From Escherichia coli (GTDB lineage Bacteria; Pseudomonadota; Gammaproteobacteria; Enterobacterales; Enterobacteriaceae), in assembly GCF_011045215.1 (NCBI RefSeq), contig NZ_CP049201.1: a stretch of 64,000 nt of DNA. The stretch is one strand, 5' to 3'. Positions 656 to 38,609 of the stretch are shown here, in pieces (positions within the stretch are counted from its first letter, which is position 1; each line of letters begins with the position of its first letter). The notes below the pieces were generated by a model. The model was not told where the DNA came from. It ran no database searches and worked only from the letters and a program-made list of their open reading frames with translations. The translations under genes were made by a program, and so were the position numbers.

Positions 656-1663
656 GTGAAAAAGCAATGGATTGTAGGCACTGCGCTGTTTGTGTTGATG
701 TCTGGTAATGTCTGGGCAGGTGGCGAACCGCCAACTGAAAATATCTTAAAAGATCAATTCAAAAAGCAGTATCACGGCATTCTCAAGCTTGATGCCATCA
801 CCTTAAAAAACCTTGATGCGAAAGGTAATCAGGCCACCTGGTCAGCAGAAGGCGATGTTTCTTCCAGCGATGATCTCTATACCTGGGTCGGTCAGTTGGC
901 AGATTACGAACTGCTGGAACAGACCTGGACGAAAGATAAACCGGTAAAATTCTCGGCGATGTTAACCAGTAAAGGAACGCCCGCGTCTGGCTGGACGGTG
1001 AACTTTTACTCTTTTCAGGCGGCAGCCAGCGATCGTGGTCGGGTGGTCGACGATATCAAAACGAATAATAAATACCTGATCGTGAATAGCGAAGATTTCA
1101 ATTATCGTTTTAGTCAGCTTGAGTCAGCGTTGAATACCCAGAAGAACTCGATTCCTGCGCTGGAGAAGGAAGTGAAAGAGCTTGATAAGAAAATGGCAGC
1201 GGCGCAGAAAGCAGCGGATGCATATTGGGGAAAAGATGCAAACGGCAAGCAAATGACCCGCGAAGACGCCTTTAAAAAAATTCACCAACAGCGTGATGAG
1301 TTTAATAAACAGAACGATAGCGAGGCGTTCGCGGTTAAATATGACAAAGAGGTTTATCAACCGGCGATTGCGGCATGTCATAAACAGAGTGAAGAGTGTT
1401 ATGAAGTGCCGATTCAGCAGAAACGAGATTTCGATATCAACGAACAACGGCGACAGACTTTTCTGCAATCACAAAAACTTAGCCGTAAATTGCAGGATGA
1501 CTGGGTAACGCTCGAAAAAGGGCAATATCCGTTAACGATGAAAGTTTCAGAAATAAACAGTAAAAAAGTCGCGATTTTGATGAAAATTGACGATATCAAC
1601 CAGGCTAATGAACGCTGGAAAAAAGATACCGAACAACTGCGGCGCAATGGGGTGATTAAGTAA
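656..1663 (+). CDS. yggM: Secreted protein of unknown function, YggM-like (GTG start, signal peptide)
   Basis: 335-aa ORF with N-terminal signal peptide (MKKQWIVGTALFVLMSGNVWAG); length and N-terminus match my recollection of YggM; adjacent to ansB. Confidence 0.75.
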   Translation: MKKQWIVGTALFVLMSGNVWAGGEPPTENILKDQFKKQYHGILKLDAITLKNLDAKGNQATWSAEGDVSSSDDLYTWVGQLADYELLEQTWTKDKPVKFSAMLTSKGTPASGWTVNFYSFQAAASDRGRVVDDIKTNNKYLIVNSEDFNYRFSQLESALNTQKNSIPALEKEVKELDKKMAAAQKAADAYWGKDANGKQMTREDAFKKIHQQRDEFNKQNDSEAFAVKYDKEVYQPAIAACHKQSEECYEVPIQQKRDFDINEQRRQTFLQSQKLSRKLQDDWVTLEKGQYPLTMKVSEINSKKVAILMKIDDINQANERWKKDTEQLRRNGVIK

Positions 1664-1678
1664 CTCATGTTAAGTGCC

Positions 1679-1720
1679 TTTGCCGGATAATATAAAAAGT
1701 TATCCGGCAAATTATTTTTC
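1679..1720 (+). terminator. Putative terminator after yggM
   Basis: Hairpin tgccggataa-N10-ttatccggca followed by aattattttt. Confidence 0.5.
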
Positions 1721-3020
1721 ACATTAGCCCTAGTAGCTGTGGAATGAACAAGGATATTTGCGGAATGTAAGTGATCATCATCAACGCTACTAGCAATGCA
1801 GCATAAAATGGCAGCAATGGTTTGATTAAATGTTGAATCTTCACACCCGAGATAGAACAACCAACAAATAACGCACTACCCACCGGCGGTGTTAACAGCC
1901 CAATACAAAGGTTGGCCACCATCATAATACCGAAATGTACAGGGTCCATTCCCAGCTCTTGTGCAATCGGCAAGAAGATCGGTGTAAAGATTAGTACAGC
2001 CGGTGTCATGTCCATAAAGATGCCGACAATTAATAAGACGATATTAATCAGCAGCAATATGATCAGTGGGTTATCAGAAATCCTCATCAATGCGTCGCTG
2101 ATCATATAAGGAATATCAGCATTGGTCATTGCCCAGGACATGCCCACGGAAAAACCGATCAACAGTAATACAATCGAAGTGGTAACAACCGATTCCAGAA
2201 TCAGTTTGGGTAAATCGCGCCATTTCACTTCCCGGTAAATCAGCACCGAGAGAATAAATGTGTAGACAACGGCAATTGCTGACGCTTCAGTTGCGGTAAA
2301 AATGCCGCCCAGAATGCCGCCCATCACAATGAACACCAGAAGCAAACTTGGTAGGGCATCCAGAAACGCTTTACAGGCCTGAGCAAAGGTTGCTCTATCT
2401 GAAAGTGGGTAACCACGGCGTTTAGCAATAATGGCGCAGACAACCATTACCGCGAGCCCCATTAAGATCCCTGGCAAATATCCGGCCATAAATAGCGATG
2501 CTACGGAAACGCCGCCAGCGGTCAGGGAAAACACAATTAACACGTTTGAGGGCGGTATCAGTAATCCAGTAATACAGGATGAGACGTTTACAGCGGTAGA
2601 AAATGCCGGATCATAACCTTCTTTGGTCTGAATGGGATTAAGTGTGCCACCAACGGCAGCAGCTGCCGCAACGGCTGAACCAGAAATGGAACCAAACATC
2701 ATATTCGCCAGGACGTTCACATGACCAAGCGAACCAGGAACGCGGCCAACCATTACCTGGGCGAGGTTAATCAAACGTATCGCAATACCGCCGCTGTTCA
2801 TCAGCGTTCCGGCAAAGATGAAAAAGGGGATTGCCAACAGGGCAAAGTTATCCAGTCCATTAGCCAGTCGTTGCGAAACAGTGATTGCCGCGATATCCCA
2901 GGGAAACATCAAAAGCAATGAAGCTACAGTGGCAATACCGATTGAGAACGAAATGGGCACACCAATAAAGACCAGCACAAAAAAACAGCCAAACAGTGTA
3001 ATCGCGATATAACTATCCAT
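1719..3020 (-). CDS. TRAP transporter large permease subunit (DctM family)
   Basis: 433-aa highly hydrophobic multi-TM protein; tightly coupled to the DctQ-like and DctP-like genes upstream on the same strand; family assignment from sequence character and operon context, no HMM run. Confidence 0.8.
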   Translation of the reverse strand: MDSYIAITLFGCFFVLVFIGVPISFSIGIATVASLLLMFPWDIAAITVSQRLANGLDNFALLAIPFFIFAGTLMNSGGIAIRLINLAQVMVGRVPGSLGHVNVLANMMFGSISGSAVAAAAAVGGTLNPIQTKEGYDPAFSTAVNVSSCITGLLIPPSNVLIVFSLTAGGVSVASLFMAGYLPGILMGLAVMVVCAIIAKRRGYPLSDRATFAQACKAFLDALPSLLLVFIVMGGILGGIFTATEASAIAVVYTFILSVLIYREVKWRDLPKLILESVVTTSIVLLLIGFSVGMSWAMTNADIPYMISDALMRISDNPLIILLLINIVLLIVGIFMDMTPAVLIFTPIFLPIAQELGMDPVHFGIMMVANLCIGLLTPPVGSALFVGCSISGVKIQHLIKPLLPFYAALLVALMMITYIPQISLFIPQLLGLM

Positions 3021-3532
3021 TAACTGGCCTCCTGCTCAGGTTGTTTCAGTTGTTGAATGCTTTGGTTAATAAAACACAAGGCATAAAACATCATCACCAC
3101 TCCACTTAATGGCAGAATGATATATACGTATCCCATCGGTATTTGCATAGCGGCAGATACCTGAGATGTTGCCAGTGTTTTATCAATTAACTTCAGGCCA
3201 CCAGTCACAATGACCGAACCGGCAAAACCTAAAATGAGAACGTTAATGACTATACTAAGAAGTAATTGCTTGCGTTTATTCAAGGCGAGAGCAAATAAAT
3301 CAATAGAGAGATGTCGCTGCGCGCCGACGGTATATGCAGCACCTAATAATCCTACCCAGATCATCAAAAAGCGTGCCAGCTCATCGGTTAATGTACTTGG
3401 CTGGTTAAGTACGTAGCGGCTAAATACTTGCCAGACTACGCATACAACCAGAGCAAGCATGACGGCGACAGAAAACGCGGCAATGACGCGGTCTACCGCA
3501 AGTTTCAGGCGGTTAAATATCATTGTAAGCAT
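3020..3532 (-). CDS. TRAP transporter small permease subunit (DctQ family)
   Basis: 170-aa 4-TM-like protein between SBP and large permease; start/stop overlap with the DctM-like gene. Confidence 0.75.
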   Translation of the reverse strand: MLTMIFNRLKLAVDRVIAAFSVAVMLALVVCVVWQVFSRYVLNQPSTLTDELARFLMIWVGLLGAAYTVGAQRHLSIDLFALALNKRKQLLLSIVINVLILGFAGSVIVTGGLKLIDKTLATSQVSAAMQIPMGYVYIILPLSGVVMMFYALCFINQSIQQLKQPEQEAS

Positions 3533-3567
3533 CTTGGAAAATCAGGGCCAGAGACTGGCCCGGAATA

Positions 3568-4554
3568 TTATTGAGCAGCGTTGTCGAATTTCTCTAACAA
3601 AGCAGCTTGTTTTGGATCTTTTTTGAAGTCGTCAAACAGAGGTTGCACGGCTTTACGGAATGGCGCTTTATCCACTTTTACAATTTCCCCCCCCATAGCT
3701 TTCGCCTGAGCACGTGTGTCAGCGTCAATTTTTTCCCACAATTTTTGTTGATAAGCTTCGGATTTCTTCGCCGCTGTTTCAAGGATTTGTTGCTGTTCCG
3801 GGGTTAATTTATTCCATGTTTTGGTGGAGATAACCAAAAAGTCAGGAATTGAGGCGTGTTCATCTTCAGAAAAGACTTTGGCAATTTCAATATGTCGAGT
3901 CTGCACCCAGGAAGGCACGTTATTTTCTGCGCCATTTACTACACCTTGCTGCATCGCAGTATAAACTTCGCCAAATGAAATTGGAGTGGGTGAACCACCC
4001 ATCAGTTCAATCATTTTGATGGTGGTCGGACTTGGCTGAACACGAATTTTCAGTCCTTTAAGATCTTCTGGCTTTGTAATCGGTTTTTTCGCATAGAAAC
4101 TGCGTGTACCCGCTACATAAGCTGATAAAGCAAAAAAGCCTTTGTCTTTTGTTGAGTCCATAATTTCTTTACCAACTTCACCAAAAACAACTTTGTTGAA
4201 GTGCGCCTGATCTTTAAATAAGAACGGCAAATTATAGATAGCATAAATATTATCAAAAGACTCCAGATCACTGGCGGAACCTTTGGTCATATCCAGTGCG
4301 CCATTTTGCAACAATTCCATAGTTTCTCGCGCATTACCCATCTGGCTGCTGGGATAAATACGGATCACCATATTACCTTTTGACAGCTGTTTTACCTCTT
4401 TCGCCAGCTCTTCAAAACTCTGATGTACAACATGACTTCTTTCCAGGTTGTGTGCTAACTTTAACGTCACTTTTTCTGCGGCGTTTACGCCAGTGCTAAC
4501 CAGAGCCAGCAAGGATGCGCAGACTAATGAGCGGGTAAATGACCTCATCTTCAT
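3568..4554 (-). CDS. TRAP transporter substrate-binding protein (DctP family), secreted
   Basis: 328-aa protein with signal peptide (MKMRSFTRSLVCASLLALVSTGVNAAE); first gene of P-Q-M operon. Confidence 0.8.
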   Translation of the reverse strand: MKMRSFTRSLVCASLLALVSTGVNAAEKVTLKLAHNLERSHVVHQSFEELAKEVKQLSKGNMVIRIYPSSQMGNARETMELLQNGALDMTKGSASDLESFDNIYAIYNLPFLFKDQAHFNKVVFGEVGKEIMDSTKDKGFFALSAYVAGTRSFYAKKPITKPEDLKGLKIRVQPSPTTIKMIELMGGSPTPISFGEVYTAMQQGVVNGAENNVPSWVQTRHIEIAKVFSEDEHASIPDFLVISTKTWNKLTPEQQQILETAAKKSEAYQQKLWEKIDADTRAQAKAMGGEIVKVDKAPFRKAVQPLFDDFKKDPKQAALLEKFDNAAQ

Positions 4555-4840
4555 AAAAAAACTCCCTGTTGAAGGATGGAAATTGGTTGATATCTAATTG
4601 TGCTTATCAGTGCTTTGTGCGACAAATTGGTTAACCTGTCTGACAACTTGTCTATGTTTATCACAACTTGAAATAAAGTCAGGAATTAAATATTAATTTT
4701 GTGCGCCAGGTTGTACATATTTATAATCAATGAATGATTAGTAAATATTCACTAAATATATATAATAAATGTCGTCGATATTTATTCAGTAAGAAATATA
4801 TTTCTGCCGAGGTTAATTAACGGGGGGGATAAAAGAAGTG
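4555..4840 (-). promoter_or_regulatory. AT-rich upstream region of the TRAP operon (promoter and possible regulator/H-NS sites)
   Basis: ~290 bp strongly AT-rich non-coding DNA directly upstream of the DctP-like gene; no ORF of convincing size. Confidence 0.4.
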
Positions 4841-4866
4841 ATTAATGCGCCCGCAGGCGCATTAAT
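4841..4866 (-). terminator. Perfect 11-bp inverted repeat at hemW 3' end (probable hemW terminator)
   Basis: attaatgcgcc-cgca-ggcgcattaat, 2 nt downstream of hemW stop; RC strand continues cacttctttt. Confidence 0.45.
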
Positions 4867-4868
4867 GA

Positions 4869-6005
4869 TTACTCAGCGAGGAATAATTCAAGAAGTGAGT
4901 TTAAGAATAATTTACCATGTTCCGTTATCTGCCAGTAATCCGCACATTCGGTGAGATAACCCTGAGCGATAGCTTCGTCTAACTGTGGGCGAATCACTGC
5001 TTCAGAAAGGCCAGTATACTGACTAAACTCCACGCGCGGCGCAGGTTCCAGCAACCGGAAGCGATTCATAAAGAACTCAAACGGCTTATCTGCGGCTTCT
5101 ACATCACGCTGGCTTTCCAGATACCTTCCTTGCATAAAACCACGCGGATGGCGCGTTTTGGTGGTACGCAGAATGCGCCCATCCGGGAAGGTCACTTTGC
5201 CGTGTGCGCCGCAGCCAATACCGATGTAGTCACCAAAGCGCCAGTAGTTGAGATTGTGCTGGCACTGATAACCGGGTTTGGCGTAAGCGGAGGTTTCATA
5301 TTGCTGATAACCCGCTGCGGTTAATAACTGATGCCCCTGTTCGAATATATCCCACAACGCGTCATCGTCCGGCAGTACAGGAGGGCGCGAGCCAAACAGC
5401 GTATTAGGTTCGATGGTCAGTTGATACCAGGAAAGATGCGGCGGATTCAGTTCAATGGCCTGGCGTAGATCGCCAAGTGCCTCTTCCAGTGATTGATCCG
5501 GCAACCCATGCATCAAATCAAGGTTAAAGCTACGTAACCCTAAACCGCTCGCCAGCTTTGCCGCTCGTTTCGCTTCTTGCGGGCCATGAATACGCCCAAG
5601 TCGTTTCAGCTTTTCTTCGCTAAAACTCTGCACACCAATAGAGATGCGGTTCACACCAGCACGCTGATAATCGACAAAGCGATCGGCTTCTACCGTTCCA
5701 GGGTTCGCTTCCATAGTAATTTCTGCATCCGCTGCCAGCGGCAAACGCGCACGCACGCCGTCCAGCAGCGTTTGCATCGCCGGGCCGGAAAGCAGGCTCG
5801 GCGTACCACCGCCAATAAAGATTGTCTTTACTTCACGGCCCTGAGCGTAAGCCACATCGTTGTCCAGATCGTTAAGCAGATGCTGAACATAATCGTCGTG
5901 CGGCACTTCTCCTTTCAACGCGTGAGAGTTGAAATCGCAGTACGGGCATTTCTGCACGCACCACGGGATGTGAATGTAGAGACTCAGCGGCGGTAATTTA
6001 ACCAT
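4869..6005 (-). CDS. hemW: Radical SAM heme chaperone HemW (YggW)
   Basis: 378 aa; CxxxCxxC radical-SAM motif ([12 protein letters not shown]); conserved position next to rdgB. Confidence 0.9.
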
Positions 6006-9172: not shown

Positions 9173-9189
9173 CGTTGCCATGCCCGATG

Positions 9190-9315
9190 TGCAAGCTTAT
9201 CGGGCCTACAAAGGCAATAAACGTCTGATGCGACGCTTGCGCGTCTTATCAGACCTACAACCGCTGCCACATGTAGGCTGGATAAGGCGTTCATGCCGCA
9301 TCCGGCAATAAGACG
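9190..9315. repeat. REP/BIME palindromic elements
   Basis: gcctgatgcgacgc / gtaggctggataaggcgttcatgccgcatccggca REP-type palindromes between convergent yggR and ruvX. Confidence 0.6.
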
Positions 9316-38520: not shown

Positions 38521-38609
38521 TCTGATTGCCAATTAATATTATCAATTTCCGCTAATAACAATCCCGCGATATAGTCTCTGCATCAGATACTTAATTCGGA
38601 ATACCAAAC

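Follow-up and report, generated by a model that had tools for sequence, protein, structure and literature searches.

A probable hexuronate TRAP transporter operon beside hemW in Escherichia coli, predicted to be ancestral at this position and lost from K-12

The closest described counterpart of the operon analysed here is that of STM3169 of Salmonella Typhimurium, a binding protein that was modelled on the solved structure 4N15, binds D-glucuronate with a Kd of ~0.2 µM and was proposed as the high-affinity partner of the major facilitator superfamily (MFS) carrier ExuT (Herman et al. 2020, PMC7660916). STM3169 has been reported to be under ppGpp/SsrB control (PMC3022708). In Agrobacterium tumefaciens, GaaPQM is given as a P/Q/M system for D-galacturonate by Zhao and Binns (2016), as that study is cited in PMC5812351. 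[quoted passage not shown] We consider it probable that this operon imports hexuronates under the predicted control of the cyclic AMP receptor protein (CRP) and of ExuR and UxuR, that its place next to hemW is ancestral and that K-12 has lost it.

Three intact, co-directional open reading frames (ORFs) occupy the minus strand between yggM and hemW, and both the ORF list and profile searches identify them as a TRAP P/Q/M operon (Table 1). PF03480, PF04290 and PF06808 match the three consecutive ORFs; the alignment of dctM spans profile positions 1-413 of 413 of PF06808, and the scores for TIGR00787 and TIGR00786 (NCBIfam) exceed the cut-offs for TRAP proteins. Genes for a binding protein, a small subunit (four transmembrane segments in transporters of this type) and a large subunit (twelve) are found together, and the binding protein starts with a Sec signal peptide, MKMRSFTRSLVCASLLALVSTGVNA, followed by cleavage before AEK. 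The stop codon of dctQ overlaps the start codon of dctM (ATGA at 3020); orthologues of dctQ in RefSeq start at the ATG equivalent to position 3523, which gives a protein of 167 aa. By every feature open to a sequence test, the locus is a DctP-type TRAP transporter, and its proteins carry only the label 'TRAP transporter' in RefSeq. An earlier note on this DNA, made from the letters alone, had described a complete TRAP operon with its upstream spacer at positions 1719-4868, ~300 bp of AT-rich DNA ahead of it and no adjacent regulator gene. These descriptions hold: the spacer measures 314 bp at 32.5% GC, and no regulator gene adjoins the operon among the ORFs of the window.

The nine best matches of the binding protein among solved structures (4N15/4N17, 4LN5, 4OVR, 4X8R, 4MHF, 4MIJ, 4N91, 4N8Y and 4XFE) form one group, with E-values of 1e-58 to 1e-67 and alignments of near full length. 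D-glucuronate is the ligand in 4N91 and 4MHF, and Bpro_3107, the protein of 4MHF, binds either uronate (PMC7660916); the ligand is galacturonate in 4N8Y and glucuronate in 4X8R (PMC11668362). With literature-confirmed ligands for these four entries, the closest characterised relatives of the window protein constitute a hexuronate-binding group. We take the remaining top entries to be D-glucuronate or D-galacturonate binders from the Enzyme Function Initiative (EFI) screen. At E-values comparable to those of the structural matches, representatives of clusters built at 50% identity are 33-48% identical to the window protein.

This comparison also bears on whether the operon could instead encode a transporter of the C4-dicarboxylate (DctPQM), sialic-acid (SiaPQM) or 2,3-diketo-L-gulonate (YiaMNO) type. 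Many PDB and database entries are named 'TRAP dicarboxylate transporter', YiaM and YiaN of NCBIfam give sub-threshold matches, and structures of SiaP and DctP match the binding protein at E-values of 1e-33 to 1e-40. However, the SiaP and DctP matches are at least 20 orders of magnitude (20-30) weaker than those of the hexuronate-binding group, the YiaM and YiaN scores fall far under their cut-offs (39 vs 260 and 295 vs 800), and uronate metabolism is indicated both by the genes that surround relatives and by the operator-like boxes described below. We regard a substrate of one of these other types as highly improbable.

By alignment, the pocket of the window protein is formed by N36, L37, A75, R151, R171, N211 and D238. 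R171 aligns with the invariant carboxylate-binding arginine of the solved homologues and with Arg170 of STM3169, and R151, R171, N211 and an AENN motif are conserved relative to the solved homologues. The contact residues of STM3169 are N35, Q36, E74, R150, R170, N210 and D237 (PMC7660916); five of these seven recur in the window protein (N36, R151, R171, N211 and D238) when residues are mapped by a constant numbering offset of +1 and by alignment to the PDB homologues, rather than to the STM3169 sequence. The carboxylate clamp therefore reads as conserved, with a predicted change at two specificity positions. A further residue of this region, Asn207 (codon at window 3934-3936), lies in the motif QQGVVNGAENN, four residues before the ligand-contact Asn211; the residue is Asp in both E. 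coli lineages examined and in every other genus of the alignment.

The gene neighbourhoods of relatives also point to uronates. In Aeromonas rivuli and Pantoea sp. IMH, homologues with 60% identity stand between uxaC-uxaB-uxaA and exuR, where E. coli has exuT, and have the same HNL / G-x-P-R-E / P-D-F pocket pattern. The neighbouring proteins in these two clusters are 77-80% (UxaC), 66-70% (UxaB), 68-78% (UxaA) and 66-74% (ExuR) identical to those of K-12 by BLASTP. Two relatives with 52% identity have comparable surroundings: P0122, a representative of a 50% cluster, sits in the order exuR-like-PQM-uxaA-uxaB-uxaC, and P0124, from a Vibrio/Pasteurellaceae clade, adjoins an uxuR-like gene and uxuA and shares six of the seven numbered STM3169 residues. 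Across the uronate-linked homologues, neighbouring enzymes have 44-80% BLASTP identity to the K-12 enzymes. The nearest 50%-cluster representative, P0121, lies on a contig of 1.7 kb without usable context, and where the operon is found at other loci (Buttiauxella, Edwardsiella, Mangrovibacter and Enterobacillus) the neighbours give no consistent functional clue. STM3169 was found neither among the best 120 relatives of the window protein nor among the best 120 of P0124. Taken as a whole, the contexts appear to tie the family to hexuronate catabolism.

To these we add the upstream spacer, which we compared with the hexuronate promoters of K-12 (NC_000913.3). A position weight matrix (PWM) was derived from five K-12 boxes (exuT, exuR, two of uxaB, and uxaC), and the last ~145 bp before the ATG were aligned across 16 taxa from about 12 genera. 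The blocks conserved in this alignment are TGTGA after A-rich DNA, box 1 (AGwTGTCnGACAAC), a GATAAT/GATAAG hexamer, box 2, AGATATnnACCAATT and the ribosome-binding site, and the remainder of the spacer has diverged among the 16 taxa. Box 1 differs at one specified position from the box of the K-12 exuT promoter, AAGTTGTnnnACAAGTT (AAGTTGTATGACAAGTT), a match that occurs nowhere else in the 64 kb (0.02 expected). Its PWM score of 18.3 bits is the highest of the window and falls within the range of the training sites, and most genera have PWM matches between -93 and -98 relative to the ATG. Box 2, centred 21 bp from the centre of box 1, reads ATGTCATACAG in other genera; its 9-base core there, TGTCATACA, gives the core of the K-12 exuT box when reverse-complemented. 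The Escherichia-specific site AGGTTAACCAATTT matches 13 of the 14 bases of TGGTTAACCAATTT in the K-12 gntP-uxuA spacer, again as the only match in the window (0.01 expected), and occupies the place of the GATAAT/GATAAG hexamer of other genera. UxuR binds the gntP-uxuA spacer in genomic SELEX (systematic evolution of ligands by exponential enrichment; PMC5934670). Salmonella, Citrobacter, Klebsiella and Pluralibacter keep box 3 in the form AGATATnnACCAATT. Across all fetched loci, PWM sites of at least 12 bits occur at a background of 0.09 per kb; two further matches in the window, at 1697-1713 in a terminator hairpin and at 38531-38547 in an AT-rich palindrome, were dismissed as chance.

The TGTGA block is a candidate CRP half-site. 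It is readable at the aligned position in 13 of the 16 taxa, with CGTGA in Enterobacillus and no counterpart in Salmonella or Kluyvera genomosp. 1. At the equivalent place, the K-12 exuT promoter and the TRAP promoters of Aeromonas and Pantoea have TGTGATGGnTCTCA; in the latter two, which adjoin exuR, it is followed by AGATGTTATACCAATT, in the arrangement of the K-12 exuT promoter. In most genera the GATAAT/GATAAG hexamer comes ~33-38 nt after TGTGA, a spacing that, as we read it, suits a class II CRP promoter in which repressor sites lie on either side of the -10 element. Operator-like palindromes of the ExuR/UxuR type, as judged against K-12 reference sites of our own choosing, are present in the window promoter and are kept in the orthologous promoters of other genera. 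The operon is, we predict, a member of the CRP-dependent ExuR/UxuR regulon, and such membership would explain why no regulator gene adjoins it. The earlier note had held that the substrate cannot be read from the sequence; this now seems too pessimistic, as hexuronates are indicated by homology, by the genes found next to relatives and by the operator-like boxes alike.

We next consider how the operon came to lie where it does. In K-12, yggM and hemW adjoin, and a spacer of 154 bp of the repetitive extragenic palindromic (REP) type stands in place of window 1664-4868; the stop codons of the two genes (window 1663 and 4869) mark the exact limits of homology between K-12 and the window. The comparison bears out the statement of the earlier note that the operon is missing from K-12 at this site. 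The note went on to call the operon inserted and to suggest a horizontal origin, and here the wider comparison does not follow it. One genome per species was scanned for relatives of the binding protein, which gave 44 loci, and neighbouring genes were located by local tblastn with the proteins of the window. The order rdgB-hemW-dctPQM was found in Escherichia sp. MOD1-EC7003, Citrobacter (5 loci), Pseudocitrobacter, Kluyvera (7), Klebsiella (7), Phytobacter and other Enterobacteriaceae, and, with Salmonella included, hemW and dctPQM are adjacent in at least seven enterobacterial genera. A Salmonella enterica locus with a 90%-identical binding protein has the full gene order of the window, gshB...yggS-yggT-yggU-rdgB-hemW-P-Q-M-yggM-ansB-yggN-yggL-trmB-mutY. 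Identity to the window across genera is 83-93% for the binding protein, mostly 93-95% for DctM and 88-93% for hemW and rdgB. Because the order recurs across genera with a divergence of the TRAP genes that matches that of the flanking core genes, we take the hemW-adjacent position to be ancestral in Enterobacteriaceae and K-12 to represent a deletion state.

The alternative, in line with the note, is that a TRAP island entered a K-12-like ancestor by horizontal transfer, as an insertion between yggM and hemW, and that H-NS silences its AT-rich promoter. The absence of the operon from K-12 and from ~73% of complete E. coli genomes would fit this, as would the yield of just one Escherichia locus from the species-representative scan and the base composition, with 42-46% GC in the TRAP genes vs 51-55% in most flanking genes and 32.5% in the spacer. 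Yet yggM is equally GC-poor (44.6%), the TRAP genes are GC-poorer than hemW also in Klebsiella, Citrobacter, Salmonella and Kluyvera, and their GC content at third codon positions tracks that of the host genome. The upstream spacer is likewise AT-rich in all genera (33.8% GC in Klebsiella, 34.5% in Kluyvera and 35.9% in Salmonella), and the compositional case for a foreign origin looks weak. At the borders of the operon we found no tRNA, no integrase or transposase ORF and no flanking direct repeats, the hallmarks of a genomic island, and the divergence of the TRAP genes equals that of their flanks at a site shared by at least seven genera. The breakpoints at the stop codons, together with the repeated element that K-12 has there, also speak against an insertion. 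Acquisition as an island is very unlikely in our view and horizontal origin appears largely refuted; H-NS binding at the spacer is possible. As to whether the operon is part of the conserved core at this locus, a question raised in the earlier note, it is so at the level of the family and not within E. coli, where it is accessory (27%).

The K-12 filler (positions 2162-2315 of the fetched K-12 locus) itself hints at how the deletion may have arisen. Over 98 bp it is 96.9% identical to a bacterial interspersed mosaic element (BIME) at window 9213-9310, downstream of yggR, and on the strength of this identity it resembles a copy of a REP element ~4 kb away; a REP-associated replacement or deletion at the K-12 site is suggested. 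The BIME/REP cluster downstream of yggR extends over window 9180-9310.

Within E. coli, the operon is present in 1,460 of 5,426 complete genomes (27%), with presence defined as at least 80% coverage of window 1664-4868, and fragments below this coverage occur in 32 further complete genomes. The operon is accessory in this species, being absent from K-12 and from ~73% of complete genomes. A relocated partial copy lies away from the hemW locus in E. coli TUM9803 (NZ_CP135671.1 71165-80963); its dctM and dctQ have 96% identity, its frameshifted binding-protein remnant is annotated 'TroA family', and it adjoins transposase and integrase fragments. Identity between the window and E. coli genomes is only 96-98%, with OkiPb01695 coming nearest at 98.3% (99.3% over the operon), and identity of at least 99% over the operon was seen in just 4 of the 5,426 genomes. 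Its flanking core genes are ~96.5% identical to K-12 and 96.0% to Escherichia sp. MOD1-EC7003, and the window comes from a somewhat divergent Escherichia lineage. The locus seems polymorphic in Salmonella too: the operon is found next to hemW in some Salmonella enterica, including subsp. salamae, and LT2 is described with only three TRAP systems, other than that of the hemW locus (PMC7660916). Three of the scanned loci fall on contigs in a Collinsella metagenome-assembled genome (MAG; L003), a Bacillota MAG (L005) and an Alicyclobacillaceae assembly (L044), with binding proteins of 98-99% amino acid identity; the DNA of the first two is 96.5% and 97.5% identical to the window, and L003 also has hemW. 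These are almost certainly Escherichia contamination of those bins.

Loss from most E. coli raises the further possibility that the Escherichia operon is a poorly expressed remnant nearing loss, conserved in sequence and lacking a working promoter. The partial copies (32 genomes, and the dctQM of TUM9803 with a binding-protein pseudogene, beside fragments of insertion sequences) also fit this reading. On the other side, the three TRAP genes have dN/dS ratios of 0.05-0.12 vs 0.04-0.11 for hemW and yggM (compared with E. coli O111:H8 and U12A), at a dS of 0.07-0.13 between the lineages compared that is similar for both sets of genes, and the genomes examined have none of the three ORFs disrupted. 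The proximal ~130 bp of the promoter has one variable site among five Escherichia lineages whose divergence elsewhere is 3-4%, and the distal spacer has about a dozen. Because the proximal promoter is near-invariant while the distal spacer varies, we infer selection on the regulatory DNA, and the low dN/dS and intact ORFs extend this to ongoing selection on the proteins. The same proximal region supplies evidence for a remnant as well: Escherichia has other DNA in place of the GATAAT-like -10 hexamer that separates boxes 1 and 2 elsewhere, and on the minus strand of the spacer no canonical promoter was found by a strict sigma-70 scan. We judge a decaying remnant to be unlikely.

The replaced hexamer and the negative sigma-70 scan also weigh against our preferred reading of a regulated hexuronate importer, and several other observations do so. 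The putative CRP site has a poor right half, and the K-12 'operators' were selected by us from promoters known to be regulated by ExuR or UxuR and are not published footprints. No uronate gene adjoins the operon in this genome or at the other hemW-locus orthologues, and no paper on the hemW-locus TRAP operon was found in the library that was searched. In the pocket, two of the seven STM3169 contacts differ, Gln to Leu37 and Glu to Ala75. Glu stands at the positions equivalent to 75 and 238 in all four solved homologues that were aligned; the window protein has Ala at the first and Asp at the second. Because Leu37 and Ala75 replace Gln and Glu the exact ligand may differ, and since the full STM3169 contact set is lacking we do not call the system a glucuronate transporter specifically.

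With these points set against it, we still favour a hexuronate importer. Its most likely substrates are D-galacturonate and/or D-glucuronate, or a compound closely derived from them, taken up when little is present outside the cell, and the transcription start most likely lies within the proximal ~120 bp of the AT-rich spacer. CRP would probably activate through the conserved TGTGA half-site. Repression would probably be exerted by the unlinked GntR-family proteins ExuR and UxuR, which are expected to bind boxes 1 and 2, the Escherichia uxuA-type site between them and the downstream ACCAATT half-site. The hairpin that ends the hemW gene would insulate the TRAP promoter from read-through. At the junction of dctP and dctQ, a strong hairpin (-13 to -22 kcal/mol) is found in nine genera, with differing sequences in the more distant ones. 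Such hairpins are typical where an operon has to supply binding protein in excess, and this one is probably a partial terminator or an mRNA-stabilising element that raises the ratio of binding protein to membrane subunits.

Table 1 Positions of the dctPQM genes, their neighbours and the candidate regulatory sites in the window.
Feature	Position	Strand	Description	Basis
yggM/DUF1202, flanking gene	656-1663	+		Profile match
Bidirectional terminator hairpin	1679..1711	.	Common to the convergent yggM and dctM	Hairpin scan
dctM, large membrane subunit	1719..3020	-	433 aa	PF06808 E 5e-122; TIGR00786 474 bits
dctQ, small membrane subunit	3020..3532	-	170 aa from ATG at 3532	PF04290 E 2e-30
GC-rich hairpin between dctP and dctQ	3545..3561	-	GGGCCAGTCTCTGGCCC, then T-rich tail; 6 nt after dctP stop	
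dctP-type periplasmic substrate-binding protein	3568..4554	-	328 aa	PF03480 E 1e-83; TIGR00787 283 bits
Regulatory spacer upstream of dctP	4555-4868	-	314 bp, 32.5% GC (whole window 51.4%)	
Shine-Dalgarno sequence	4562..4566	-	GGGAG, 7 nt before dctP ATG	GGAG block kept in 16-taxon alignment
Box 3, ACCAATT half-site	4580..4594	-	GATATCAACCAATTT	Like K-12 uxaC and uxaB promoters
Box 2	4612..4628	-	AATTTGTCGCACAAAGC	PWM 11.9 bits, rank 4 in window
UxuR/ExuR-type operator-like site, Escherichia-specific	4624..4637	-	AGGTTAACCAATTT	K-12 comparison
Box 1, ExuR-type operator-like palindrome (TTGT-N3-ACAA)	4633..4649	-	AAGTTGTCAGACAGGTT	K-12 comparison, PWM
Candidate CRP half-site	4661..4665	-	TGTGA, A/T-rich bases before it	16-taxon alignment
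hemW terminator hairpin	4841..4866	-	Followed by T-rich tail	Hairpin scan
hemW, flanking gene	4869..6005	-		Profile match

If the proposed reading is right, a generic 'TRAP transporter' becomes a predicted high-affinity hexuronate importer, controlled by CRP and ExuR/UxuR and working alongside ExuT; roughly one in four complete E. coli genomes has it, as do many Klebsiella, Citrobacter and Kluyvera and a part of Salmonella. It would also correct a K-12-centred view, in that the laboratory strain would be derived by deletion at this locus and the operon-bearing genome would be ancestral. Uronates from pectin, mucus and glucuronides are relevant carbon sources in the gut, and the presence or absence of the operon from strain to strain could affect niche fitness; the Salmonella paralogue has been linked to macrophage survival. 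None of this will surprise a specialist, and the pocket and the Escherichia promoter show lineage-specific changes. A tentative extension, which we put forward with considerable doubt, is that Enterobacteriaceae have two hexuronate-type TRAP lineages, of which the hemW lineage, with Leu37 and Ala75, has a specificity unlike that of STM3169, for example for D-galacturonate or a keto-uronate, with loss and retention as an adaptive polymorphism and a rewired promoter in Escherichia. Were this so, losing or keeping the operon, repeatedly and in both E. coli and Salmonella, would serve the scavenging of micromolar uronates derived from pectin or glucuronides, and the replacement of the Escherichia -10 region by an uxuA-type operator would have added UxuR control.

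Set beside the known systems, the locus most resembles STM3169-STM3171, likewise an enterobacterial DctP-type P/Q/M operon without an adjacent catabolic or regulatory gene. The two binding proteins share 4N15 as their best structural template and, at the offset of +1, the two arginines, Asn210/211 and Asp237/238; they differ in Gln36 and Glu74 of STM3169, which are Leu37 and Ala75 in the window protein, and specificity may differ accordingly between them. STM3169 presumably lies near ftsP, that is, at another chromosomal locus than hemW, and the Salmonella orthologue at hemW is the 90%-identical protein, separate from STM3169. With the hexuronate binders of the EFI group, the window protein has the carboxylate-binding arginine and the AENN motif in common, although the match is only moderate. 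GaaPQM, set beside the window system by description, counts as an analogue in function by its name alone. Unlike the window system, a binding-protein-dependent secondary transporter, ExuT is an MFS carrier made of one polypeptide; the place that ExuT has in K-12 is taken in Aeromonas and Pantoea sp. IMH by the 60%-identical TRAP homologue, between uxaC and exuR, with a promoter homologous to that of K-12 exuT. The boxes of the window promoter resemble those of the K-12 exuT, uxaB, uxaC and uxuA promoters, with which the operon is predicted to share a regulon.

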